Positions 16,837 through 19,998 of a stretch of DNA of 20,000 nucleotides are shown piece after piece; position 1 is the first letter of the stretch, and the number at the start of each line of letters is the position of its first letter. The stretch is from Armatimonadota bacterium (lineage in GTDB: Bacteria; Armatimonadota; Fimbriimonadia; Fimbriimonadales; Fimbriimonadaceae): NCBI GenBank assembly GCA_031400935.1, contig JANNQV010000051.1:60509-80508 (forward strand), written 5' to 3'. Under the pieces are notes generated by a model, which worked only from the letters and a program-made list of their open reading frames with translations, was not told the DNA's origin and made no database searches. Position numbers and translations under genes: made by a program.

Positions 16837-17253
16837 ATGACTCTACGAGAGATTGTCCACTCGCATATTCCTGTGCTTCGGCGCGATAGCACCGTAAGAG
16901 ATGCCGTTGACAAAATGGACATTTATCAGTTTCCTGGGCTGGTCCTTGTTGATGACGATGAGAAGCCAATTGGAATCTTAACTGAAGGAGACGTGGTTCG
17001 GGCTGCACATGCTAGAGGCAATGTCACGAGCCTTGCTGATGAGCCGGCAGAAGTTTATGCAACTAAGGAGCCGATCGTCCTTACTGCGGAAACAGAAATT
17101 GGAGAAGCATTTCACCGAATGGCTATGAGCGGACTCACGATTTTGCCCGTAGTTGATGAAAACAGGCTCATTGGAATGCTCTTAAGAGTTGACCTGATGC
17201 ACGCGATGTTTTTAGATGCAATCGCCCATTCGAAAGAGGGAGAAAGGTCTTGA
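16837..17253 (+). CDS. Tandem CBS-domain protein
   Basis: LVDDDEKPIGILTEGDV and LPVVDENRLIGML..DL CBS motifs. Confidence 0.88.
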   Translation: MTLREIVHSHIPVLRRDSTVRDAVDKMDIYQFPGLVLVDDDEKPIGILTEGDVVRAAHARGNVTSLADEPAEVYATKEPIVLTAETEIGEAFHRMAMSGLTILPVVDENRLIGMLLRVDLMHAMFLDAIAHSKEGERS

Positions 17254-17714
17254 GCATTCGTGAAGGCGATATTTTCCCGGCATTTCGATTGAGTGATCAA
17301 TCTGAGAGTGTATTTACTCAAGTCAGTCTTTTGGGCAAAGTCTCCGTGCTCTATTTCTATCCGAAAGACGATACATCTGGCTGAACGCTAGAAGCGAACC
17401 AGTTTCGCGACTCTTTTCTTCAGGTCGAAGGAATCCAAGTTTTCGGAATCAGTCCAGACTCTGTTAAATCGCATCAAAAGTTCTGCAAAAAACTCGATCT
17501 GCCGTTTTCGCTTTTAGCCGACATTGAACATTCGCTTTGCGAAGCTTGCGGAGTTTGGGTTGAAAAGTCCATGTACGGCAAAAAGTACTGGGGAGTTGAG
17601 CGCTCAACATTTGTAATTGGCGACGATGGAATCATTACGAAAGTCTGGCGGAAAATTGTTGCCGATGGCCATGCAAGAGAAGTGCTTAGTTTCGTAAGAT
17701 CTTCTTCAGAATAA
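17250..17714 (+). CDS. bcp: BCP/PrxQ peroxiredoxin with in-frame TGA at the peroxidatic Cys (putative selenoprotein), 154 aa if read through
   Basis: TTG start overlaps the CBS stop. Translation: MSIREGDIFPAFRLSDQ...VLYFYPKDDTSG[TGA 17382-17384]TLEANQFRD...VFGISPDSVKSHQKFCKKLDLPFSLLAD...GVWVEKSMYGKKYWGVERSTFVIGDDGII.KVWRKI...GHAREVL...*. Confidence 0.88.
17390..17414 (+). promoter_or_regulatory. Candidate SECIS-like stem-loop 3' of the in-frame UGA
   Basis: GCGAA(17394-17398)-CCAGT-TTCGC(17404-17408) stem-loop, with possible lower pairing of AGA to TCT. Confidence 0.35.
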
Positions 17715-17738: not shown

Positions 17739-18521
17739 ATGGGTTCAAGAATCACCGCTCCGGATATTTTCAAAATGAAGGCTGCCGGGTCTAAAGTCGT
17801 GTGTATCACGGCATACGATTCTACAACGGCTCGAATTGCTGACCTTGCCGGAGCGGATCTCATTTTAGTTGGAGATTCTGTTGCCAACACGATGCTAGGA
17901 CTAGAAACAACCCTCGAAGTTGATCTTGCTGCGATGGTTCATCACACACGTGCAGTAGCAACGTCGGTTATTCACGCACTTTTGGTTTCAGACATGCCAT
18001 TTGGATCATACCAAGGCTCTAGCTCCCAGGCTGTGGATTCGGCTGTAGCACTGATGAAAGCTGGCGCTCATGCGGTCAAATTAGAAGGCGATTATACGGA
18101 AGCGATCGAAGCAATTTGCAAGGCCGGAATTCCCGTAATGGGACATGTCGGTATGACCCCGCAATCCGTTCACACATTCGGCGGATTCAAGGTTCAGGGC
18201 AAAGACAACGGAGCACAGATTCTTAATGCGGCAACGTCAATTGCCAAAGCAGGAGTGTTTTCGATGGTAATCGAATTGGTTCCTGCGAACCTGGCAATGG
18301 AAATCACCAAAGCCGTTGATTGCCCAACAATAGGGATAGGCGCCGGCCCTCATTGCGATGGAGAAATCCAAGTTTTTCACGACATCGTTGGCTTAAGCCC
18401 GAGCGTCTTTCGACATTCAAAGAAGTACTGCGAGGGCGCGTCTATCTTCGAATCTGCGATCTCGACTTATATTTCTGAGGCTCGAGCTGGCACTTTTCCA
18501 ACTGAAGAGAATTCCTTTTGA
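17739..18521 (+). CDS. panB: 3-methyl-2-oxobutanoate hydroxymethyltransferase
   Basis: TAYD, LVGDS, DMPFGSY, AVKLEG, GH.G.TPQ, TIGIGAG. Confidence 0.97.
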   Translation: MGSRITAPDIFKMKAAGSKVVCITAYDSTTARIADLAGADLILVGDSVANTMLGLETTLEVDLAAMVHHTRAVATSVIHALLVSDMPFGSYQGSSSQAVDSAVALMKAGAHAVKLEGDYTEAIEAICKAGIPVMGHVGMTPQSVHTFGGFKVQGKDNGAQILNAATSIAKAGVFSMVIELVPANLAMEITKAVDCPTIGIGAGPHCDGEIQVFHDIVGLSPSVFRHSKKYCEGASIFESAISTYISEARAGTFPTEENSF

Positions 18522-19351
18522 AAGTCGTTCGAACAATTGCTGAACTCAGAGCTGAGCTTCATGGTGAGATCGGATTTGTGCCGACAATGGGCGCATTTCA
18601 CGAGGGGCATCTCTCACTGATGAGAAAGGCAAGGGAAGTGAGCGACTTAACGGTAGTTTCGATCTTTGTCAACCCGTTGCAATTCGGAGATAACGAAGAC
18701 CTTTCCAAATATCCAAGAGATGAAGAACGCGATTTCCAAATGGCTAAAGAAGTCGGAGTTAGTATTGTGTTTGCGCCTTTAACGGAAGAATTAATCGGAG
18801 ATAACTATACAAATGTGCAGGTATCACGAATAACTGAATTGTGGGAAGGAGAGTTTCGACCTGGACATTTTGACGGAGTTGCAACTATCGTCTGTAAGTT
18901 ATTTAACATTATTGGGGAGTGTCATGCAGTTTTTGGACTTAAGGACTACCAGCAATGTGCGGTAGTTACGCAAATGGTGAAAGACCTTAATTTGCCTGTA
19001 AAACTTATTTTCGAAGAAACGACCAGAGAAAATGATGGCTTAGCATTGTCGAGTAGAAACAGGTACCTGTCTAGTTCGAATCGAGACGTTGCACCAGTAT
19101 TGTTTCGTACTTTGGAAAGTGCGCGGAATCAAATGCTCGTAGACAATTCAATTGTGCCATTTGAACAAGTACTGATCAATTCGAAGCAAGTGCTAATTGA
19201 CGCCGGATTCAACGTTGATTATTTTGCTTATGTTGATGTAGATACGCTTCAGCCCAAGGCCATTCATGACGGCAATGGAAGAATACTCGCCGCCGTCCGA
19301 TTAGGTGAATCTCGACTAATTGACAATATCGAAGTCAAACAAAGTGCTTGA
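18518..19351 (+). CDS. panC: Pantoate-beta-alanine ligase
   Basis: VPTMGAFHEGH, SIFVNPLQF, RPGHFDGV, KDYQQ, DGLALSSRN, RLIDN. Confidence 0.97.
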   Translation: MKVVRTIAELRAELHGEIGFVPTMGAFHEGHLSLMRKAREVSDLTVVSIFVNPLQFGDNEDLSKYPRDEERDFQMAKEVGVSIVFAPLTEELIGDNYTNVQVSRITELWEGEFRPGHFDGVATIVCKLFNIIGECHAVFGLKDYQQCAVVTQMVKDLNLPVKLIFEETTRENDGLALSSRNRYLSSSNRDVAPVLFRTLESARNQMLVDNSIVPFEQVLINSKQVLIDAGFNVDYFAYVDVDTLQPKAIHDGNGRILAAVRLGESRLIDNIEVKQSA

Positions 19352-19432: not shown

Positions 19433-19846
19433 ATGAGTAAAACAGTTCAGAGTGTCAAAAATTCATTGAAATTCAAAGTGCAGCCAAAAGTTGGCCTTCT
19501 AACAGTTCGAGTTGGGGTTAAGAAGTATGTCTTGCCAGTTGCGGCAAGAATGTTGTCTGAAGGAGGCTATATGTTTCTTTCGTTCGCAGCCACTTCAGAG
19601 CTTTTTGAGATAAAGGACAAAAAGCTAATCGCTATGGATTCGAATTCAGGCGCTGGCAATGCTTCTACCGTTCTTGTTCCGGCAAAACGTCGAGGAAGAA
19701 AGAAGGGCAAAACGCTGGATCTGCCATCCGAATTGGAAAGCGCTCTGAAAGCAATTCCTGCGGGTTATAGATTGACATTTGATCTGACGACAGGACAGCC
19801 CAGGCTCGCAAAAATGCGAAAAAAGCGTGTAACGAAAAAGAAGTAG
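19433..19846 (+). CDS. Small Lys/Arg-rich hypothetical protein
   Basis: 137 aa ORF with SD GAGGAAGGA at 19416-19424, its own promoter-like element and a terminator. Confidence 0.8.
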   Translation: MSKTVQSVKNSLKFKVQPKVGLLTVRVGVKKYVLPVAARMLSEGGYMFLSFAATSELFEIKDKKLIAMDSNSGAGNASTVLVPAKRRGRKKGKTLDLPSELESALKAIPAGYRLTFDLTTGQPRLAKMRKKRVTKKK

Positions 19847-19923: not shown

Positions 19924-19998
19924 GCCGGAGTAGCTCAGGGGTAGAGCAGCTGTTTTGTAAACAGCGGGTCGCGGGTTCGAATCCTGTCTCCGGCTCCA
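19924..19998 (+). tRNA. tRNA-Thr (anticodon TGT)
   Basis: Acceptor stem GCCGGAG/CTCCGGC, anticodon arm GCTGT-TTTGTAA-ACAGC, GGTTCGAATCC T arm, encoded CCA. Confidence 0.96.

Follow-up and report, generated by a model that had tools for sequence, protein, structure and literature searches.

A peroxiredoxin frame with one in-frame UGA

The window analysed here is a stretch of 20,000 nucleotides (nt) from an Armatimonadota bacterium of the family Fimbriimonadaceae (GenBank assembly GCA_031400935.1, contig JANNQV010000051.1, positions 60,509 to 80,508 of the forward strand; positions below count from its first letter), and our subject is a peroxiredoxin gene, bcp/prxQ, located on its + strand between a CBS-domain gene and panB. 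The frame runs from 17250 to a TAA at 17712–17714, and its sole in-frame stop is the TGA of codon 45, in FYPKDDTSG*T. On the comparative evidence given below, this UGA is very probably read as selenocysteine (Sec), which would then be the peroxidatic residue of a thioredoxin-fold Bcp/PrxQ peroxiredoxin. An earlier note on this DNA, made from the letters alone, had described a full-length bcp gene in the CBS–panB gap that begins in a TTGA overlap with the CBS stop; the frame, its single interruption and the overlap are all present. Indeed, the TTG at 17250–17252 is the first start codon in frame, and a GAGGGAG found 7–13 nt before it may, from its letters, act as a Shine–Dalgarno element. Translated with table 11, the + strand of the gap yields only fragments of 44 and 47 amino acids (aa).

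The read-through protein matches Pfam AhpC-TSA (PF00578) over model positions 2–123 of 124 (E = 2.1e-29), and among NCBIfam models it scores highest with PrxQ (139.5 bits) and BCP (129.2 bits), each covered at full length, the AhpC, Tpx and PrxU models giving 39 bits or less. These best-scoring named models, for E. coli BCP and Deinococcus-type PrxQ (NF006960, NF053650), differ from our protein in having cysteine (Cys) at the peroxidatic site. BCP/PrxQ chains of the PDB match at 1.5e-33 to 1e-30, and an AlphaFold2 (AF2) model built with 49 orthologues as input (mean predicted local distance difference test score, pLDDT, 96.1) superposes on BCP/PrxQ structures with TM scores of 0.90–0.96 in Foldseek, the top 12 PDB fold matches all being of the BCP/PrxQ type and 11 of them named so. 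Judged by these profiles and by the predicted fold, the protein is a member of the Bcp/PrxQ subfamily and not of AhpC/Prx1, Tpx or PrxU, the label COG1225 being attached to it by name only. A search of the genome with the bcp protein found no second Bcp orthologue, the next match having E = 4.2e-4.

Translation and orthologue alignment bear out that the TGA falls exactly on the peroxidatic Cys of the PxxxTxxC motif, here P38-x3-T42-x2-U45, and U45 opens helix 43–56 of the AF2 model. P38, T42, position 45 (Cys or Sec) and R118 are invariant in the 49 aligned orthologues, R118 being the Arg of ERSTF that the earlier note had already described as intact. We also observed that codon 113 (17586–17588, YWGV) encodes Trp instead of the usual Met of the conserved KKYMGV motif; the same Trp is found in the congener G001, in the Sec form of the relative G019 and in one Cys form (L048).

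Both E. coli BCP and Deinococcus-type PrxQ also carry a resolving Cys five residues after the peroxidatic one (+5, on helix alpha2). Our protein has Asn50 there, as the earlier note had read it. Across the phylum, Cys stands at +5 in 47/48 Cys forms versus 1/7 Sec forms; among metagenomic Sec forms it is kept in 49/80, and in other phyla 27 of the 79 motif matches are Cys forms without it. An association of Sec with loss of the +5 Cys holds in the phylum, but is rejected as a general rule, given the metagenomic Sec forms that keep this Cys. The earlier note had also proposed Cys79 as an alternative resolving residue on helix alpha3. This stands as far as position is concerned: Cys79 lies in helix 72–82 of the AF2 model and shares its alignment column with the alpha3 Cys of Xanthomonas PrxQ (‘SHDNFCAK’). 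Conservation does not follow, since the position is Ala in the six other Sec forms, congener included; Cys79 is thus not a conserved feature of the Sec enzymes, and could be a resolving Cys of this lineage only. The Sec form of G019 has no Cys anywhere.

Xanthomonas campestris PrxQ/BCP (PDB 3gkk, 5iiz and others) offers a close parallel for such a role, with E = 1e-30 and a TM score of about 0.90 to our protein, no Cys at +5 (Gly there, Asn here) and the Cys of its ‘SH..FC.K’ aligned with Cys79. It is an atypical 2-Cys enzyme whose resolving Cys is on alpha3, and PDB entry titles name its C48S and C84S mutants. It differs from our protein in having Cys at the peroxidatic site, and its alpha3 Cys is found in only one of the seven Sec forms, that of the present species.

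Conservation of the codon and selenocysteine machinery

Matches to the bcp protein were obtained in 39 of 40 related genomes, and 30 orthologue loci were examined. The peroxidatic codon is TGA in four of them, namely those of the window’s own genome, the congener G001 (76% identity), G019 and G006, and TGC or TGT in the other 26. We then drew on a sample of 401 genomes of the phylum, 260 of which have a match; TGA flags were read among the 150 matches listed. Five further loci of that list carried a flag for one TGA; it lies at the peroxidatic codon in three (G359, G052 and G362, from three families other than the window’s own), and the other two have TGC there. Over the 55 orthologue loci gathered in this way, that is, the 30 from relatives plus further ones from the phylum sample, the codon is TGA in 7, TGC or TGT in 48, and never anything else, so the position of the TGA is not a matter of chance; the 7:48 ratio is not a frequency, since five loci were picked for their TGA flag. 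The alternation of TGA and TGC that the earlier note had put forward as a check is, thus, seen. The six other TGA genomes all have intact full-length frames, selA is present in all seven genomes with a TGA form, and TGA-interrupted matches are absent from all 11 relatives in which selA has no match.

The best named relative of the protein comes from an Armatimonadota metagenome-assembled genome of the Fimbriimonadaceae (59% identity), and TGA was not found at the peroxidatic codon of any of 80 named-genome loci from many phyla (the motif being unmatched in 2). A strict motif scan of metagenomes (YPKDDTxG-TGA-T-x-E) retrieved the U-form in at least 120 contigs. All 80 contigs fetched are homologues at 29–53% identity, and all 72 with a stop inside the locus run 100–134 aa past the UGA.

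Selection on the part that follows the UGA was measured against the congener. The dN/dS ratio is 0.080 for codons 1–44 and 0.078 for codons 46–154, with synonymous sites saturated (pS, the proportion of synonymous differences, 0.72). By this sequence comparison, purifying selection is acting on the post-UGA half of bcp.

The genome itself (G000) is metagenome-assembled, in 67 contigs, 95.6% complete with 1% contamination. A search for the Sec machinery, suggested in the earlier note, found it complete: a tRNA-Sec scoring 66.1 bits (cut-off 47), which ARAGORN calls tRNA-SeC with anticodon tca and which has discriminator G and an encoded CCA; and, by profile search, selB (360.5 bits), selA (451.7 bits) and selD (354.1 bits), the latter with one in-frame TGA at its catalytic SCSG*ASK position. 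In-frame TGA codons were also found in two genes for peroxiredoxin (Prx)-like thiol:disulfide oxidoreductases (FWGFW-U-GPC and FWAYW-U-GPC) and in one Rdx/SelW-like gene (EFCVE-U), each at a known Sec position. Bcp included, at least five selenoproteins are predicted for the genome, SelD and otherwise only thiol-redox types. TGA has not been reassigned: elsewhere it serves as a normal stop and ends 433 of 1358 open frames of at least 300 codons, as well as the CBS gene 130 nt upstream of UGA45. The Sec trait is common in the order (29 of the 40 relatives, G001–G040, have selA above the cut-off), and most of those genomes keep a Cys-type Bcp.

FdhA is the most widespread bacterial selenoprotein. 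In our genome it appears to be absent or of Cys type, because none of the five matches to the molybdopterin-oxidoreductase family PF00384 (contigs C18, C10 and C4) has an in-frame TGA. PF02627 (AhpD/CMD) has no match in the genome.

Probable selenocysteine insertion and its alternatives

How would UGA45 be decoded? A hairpin follows the UGA within about 45 nt in all seven Sec forms. Over the 48 nt from the codon, Sec forms fold at a mean of −14.2 kcal/mol (z −1.08, n = 7) and Cys forms at −10.3 kcal/mol (z +0.37, n = 48), a difference with one-sided Mann–Whitney p values of 0.009 and 0.0002 between sequences that are related and, therefore, not independent. The comparison of G006 (Sec) with G065 (Cys) is a concrete instance: the strong stem of the Sec form consists of GCG GCG ... 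GCC GCC codons, one of which replaces the +5 Cys codon. In the window’s own gene, the minimum free energy (MFE) fold contains two hairpins that are candidates for a selenocysteine insertion sequence (SECIS). The longest stretch without a nucleotide difference from the congener (20 nt, 17391–17410) overlaps hairpin 1; for the second hairpin, RNAalifold retains the stem (columns 36–50) in 4–5 of the 7 Sec forms, 4 of its pairs showing changes on both sides. An Rfam scan of the window at gathering thresholds found only a tRNA-Thr.

Several observations weigh against reading UGA45 as Sec, or against parts of that reading. The 20-nt identical run barely exceeds two others in bcp (19 and 17 nt). Over 48 nt, no other Sec form of the seven folds as weakly as this gene (−8.8 kcal/mol, z −0.38), which falls within the Cys-form range; its 69-nt fold has z +0.25, 107 of 200 shuffles folding at least as well; RNAalifold found no structure common to the seven Sec forms (−1.39 kcal/mol), the registers of which differ. 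Because the fold is no better than shuffles, is the weakest of the Sec forms and lacks a shared structure, we infer no more than a candidate SECIS for this bcp, a weak hairpin. The protein also scores below the NCBIfam equivalog cut-offs (139.5 versus 260 bits for PrxQ, 129.2 versus 140 for BCP). Finally, in an assembly of 67 contigs, the Sec genes are on contigs other than that of bcp; a binning artefact is unlikely, since the Sec trait is found in 29 of the 40 relatives.

Sec insertion at the catalytic position, which the earlier note had favoured, is nonetheless supported by the Sec machinery, the TGA/TGC alternation and the selection after the UGA. SelB carrying Sec-tRNA(Sec), itself made by SelA and SelD, would be recruited at UGA45 by an mRNA hairpin just downstream, inside the codons of helix alpha2; Sec would be inserted, and translation would end only at the TAA of 17712. 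With P38, T42 and R118 holding it in place, the selenolate of U45 would then attack the peroxide and be oxidised to a selenenic acid. Since the Sec forms of the phylum share no conserved resolving Cys, thioredoxin or some other thiol would most likely reduce this selenenic acid directly, giving Sec forms generally a 1-Cys-like cycle; in the present species only, a selenenylsulfide between Sec45 and Cys79 on helix alpha3 may form as an optional first step.

An alternative is that UGA45 is read as Cys or another standard residue, for example through a SelB-dependent tRNA-ReC (selC*) acting at a SECIS-linked UGA. In its favour, a paper of 2026 describes tRNA-ReC-like tRNAs beside canonical SelC in five of five Armatimonadota genomes with UXXU hydrogenases, and points out that Cys may then be what these UGA codons encode (PMC13582414). 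The weakness of the SECIS of our bcp, and an odd tRNA-Sec-like element on contig C54 (G000:C54:48147-48241), would also suit it. However, by the definition used for tRNA-ReC (at least 80 nt, a UCA or GCA anticodon and discriminator U; PMC13582414), none is found among the 47 tRNAs called by ARAGORN in this 95.6% complete assembly; its single UCA tRNA carries discriminator G, and the one tRNA with a GCA anticodon is a normal tRNA-Cys of 76 nt. As to the odd element, its discriminator is also G and its anticodon, as placed by the Rfam alignment, is UUA, neither UCA nor GCA. The genome has the whole set of selA, selB and selD, with Sec in SelD itself. We hold this reading to be very unlikely. The earlier note had kept Cys insertion, or another read-through route, as a fallback should selABCD be lacking; these genes are present and no long UCA or GCA tRNA with discriminator U was found, so the fallback is not needed.

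A single base change turns TGC or TGT into TGA, and the gene could accordingly be a nonsense pseudogene, dead or dying, or the victim of a sequencing or assembly error at that base. For a pseudogene speaks also the post-UGA hairpin, no better here than in Cys forms. Yet the TGA has been kept across a divergence at which pS is 0.72, with a downstream dN/dS of 0.078, and the same codon is TGA in six other genomes, of 5 families, with intact frames and in at least 120 metagenome contigs; moreover, the search of the genome turned up no other Bcp orthologue. As for an error, the source is a metagenome-assembled genome. Contigs of two runs (X1 and X2) show the same letters, with no variant at 17382–17384 and word depths of 27 and 36; those runs may be the assembly’s own source, and their agreement has to be read accordingly. 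The four runs compared with the stretch all consist of DNA contigs from a single study, and no RNA run is among those listed for it. Independent assemblies of other species have TGA at the same codon. With dN/dS close to 0.08 on both sides of the UGA at saturated pS, a recent nonsense mutation and an assembly error are both excluded in practice: we give the pseudogene scarcely any probability, and the error even less.

The tRNA-Sec-like element deserves a description of its own. It scores 38 bits against RF01852 (cut-off 47), and is not called by ARAGORN. Its acceptor stem is of 8 bp, its variable arm is long, its G-CCA end is encoded and its anticodon loop reads CUUUACA (MFE −32.5 kcal/mol, z −1.86). 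BLAST did not find it in 39 of the 40 relatives, the remaining one giving a 27-nt partial match. An allo-tRNA-like gene is one possibility, a decayed tRNA another; as a decoder of UGA the element is ruled out by its UUA anticodon and its discriminator G, so that it has no bearing on UGA45.

Gene neighbourhood, probable Cys-to-Sec switching and significance

The features of the window and of the rest of the genome are collected in Table 1. A CBS-domain gene lies directly upstream of bcp in 31 of the 55 loci and panB downstream in 30; CBS–bcp–panB is a conserved arrangement. In the window’s own family, the CBS neighbour is present at all four Sec-form loci and panB is seen at two, the other two being on short contigs that end first. 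The bcp of the congener also begins with TTGA, with the same CBS overlap by tblastn coordinates. Farther downstream, a 137-aa open reading frame (19433–19846, +) has a very basic C-terminus (KMRKKRVTKKK) and no Pfam match at E ≤ 1e-5; the tRNA-Thr lies just beyond it.

Table 1. Features of the window and TGA-interrupted or tRNA-like elements elsewhere in the genome (contig:positions).
Feature	Position	Strand	Basis or description
CBS-domain gene	16837..17253	+	Pfam CBS 5e-21; TGA stop overlaps bcp TTG
Shine–Dalgarno-like GAGGGAG (putative)	17236..17242	+	Read from the sequence
bcp/prxQ selenoprotein gene (predicted)	17250..17714	+	154 codons, TTG start, TAA stop, Sec at codon 45; translation
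UGA codon, predicted Sec U45	17382..17384	+	Peroxidatic position of P38-x3-T42-x2-U45; orthologue alignment
Hairpin 1, candidate SECIS	17386..17409	+	CGC-UA-GAAGC / loop GAACCA / GUUUC-GCG; alternative register GCGAA / CCAGU / UUCGC; MFE fold
Second hairpin, alternative or additional SECIS candidate	17415..17433	+	7 bp, loop AGGUC; MFE fold
Cys79 codon TGC, possible lineage-specific resolving Cys	17484..17486	+	HQKFC; helix 72–82 of AF2 model
Arg118 codon, conserved active-site Arg	17601..17603	+	In VERSTF; invariant column, 49 aligned orthologues
panB	17739–18521	+	Pfam Pantoate_transf 6.7e-95
panC	18518–19351	+	Pfam Pantoate_ligase 8.5e-93
tRNA-Thr	19924–19998		Just downstream of the 137-aa frame
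Prx-like gene, TGA-interrupted	C15:14341-14697		
Prx-like gene, TGA-interrupted	C62:57525-57863		
Rdx/SelW-like gene, TGA-interrupted	C39:27260-27490		
SelD gene, TGA-interrupted	C15:155711-156616		
tRNA-Sec-like element	C54:48147-48241 (L007 1500-1594)		38 bits to RF01852, cut-off 47; no ARAGORN call

A maximum likelihood tree of the 55 proteins requires the Sec label to change 6 times, at least 3 of these changes being forced by well-supported branches, with a bootstrap that had not fully settled. Together with the kept synteny, such a tree fits a repeated conversion of Cys to Sec in place; for the Prx family, a published analysis counts 12 Sec-Prx genes and infers 5 conversions of Cys to Sec (PMC1794560). 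Sec-form branches in our tree measure 0.77–1.18 against a median of 0.43, with 1.0–1.2 substitutions per site for L045 (G006), L038 (G019), L073 (G362) and the stem of L019 and L020, whereas L069, the Cys form that is sister to G006, sits on a branch of 0.007. The pattern suggests that the protein changed rapidly after each switch from Cys to Sec, unless it is an artefact of long branches.

A more ambitious reading, which we put forward tentatively and think rather doubtful as a whole, would join these elements. The syntenic CBS–bcp–panB gene of one family would have gone from Cys to Sec on several occasions, a different SECIS being formed each time from the codons of helix alpha2; the +5 resolving Cys, whose codon lies inside the hairpin, would have been lost in six of seven cases, and a replacement, Cys79, would have arisen here and given a Sec45–Cys79 selenenylsulfide cycle. 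If true, nature would here have coupled the birth of a SECIS to the relocation of a resolving residue.

Sec-containing peroxiredoxins of this type are not new. A Sargasso Sea set placed 43 Sec-Prx genes in COG1225 (PMC1088965), 91 Prx selenoproteins were counted in 78 organisms (PMC5029168), a review table of 2022 has the entry ‘Prx, COG1225 (Bcp), TxxU’ (PMC9312934), and PxxxTxxU is listed for the Prx selenoprotein family in 2026 (PMC13188914). Our bcp is a new member of this family, described since 2005, with which it shares the PF00578 fold, the Bcp/PrxQ subfamily, predicted Sec as the peroxidatic residue in PxxxTxxU and the wide occurrence of Cys homologues; it differs in coming from a Fimbriimonadaceae-like Armatimonadota, in lacking the +5 Cys and in having an alpha3 Cys. 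PrxU of Eubacterium acidaminophilum, cited as an experimentally shown Sec-Prx (PMC13188914, PMC9312934), is likewise a Sec-containing peroxiredoxin of the AhpC/TSA superfamily, but of another subfamily: our protein reaches 33.6 bits against the cut-off of 270 of its model (NF040737), over part of the 233 positions. Our literature searches found nothing linking Armatimonadota with a Sec peroxiredoxin and, judging from listings, no biochemically characterised Sec-PrxQ.

The finding opens no new mechanism. It extends a known selenoprotein family to Fimbriimonadaceae-like Armatimonadota, and the 7 Sec and 48 Cys forms, those of the window’s own family in one syntenic slot, make a compact set for studying how a SECIS originates inside a coding sequence. 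It is also a correction of annotation: gene callers miss this bcp, a conserved selenoprotein gene, as they routinely do with members of its family, and Bcp looks absent from the genome because table 11 breaks its only Bcp orthologue found into two short fragments. The same gap affects at least four other selenoprotein genes of this genome, and with these selenoproteins missed, the peroxide defence of the organism and its dependence on selenium are understated.

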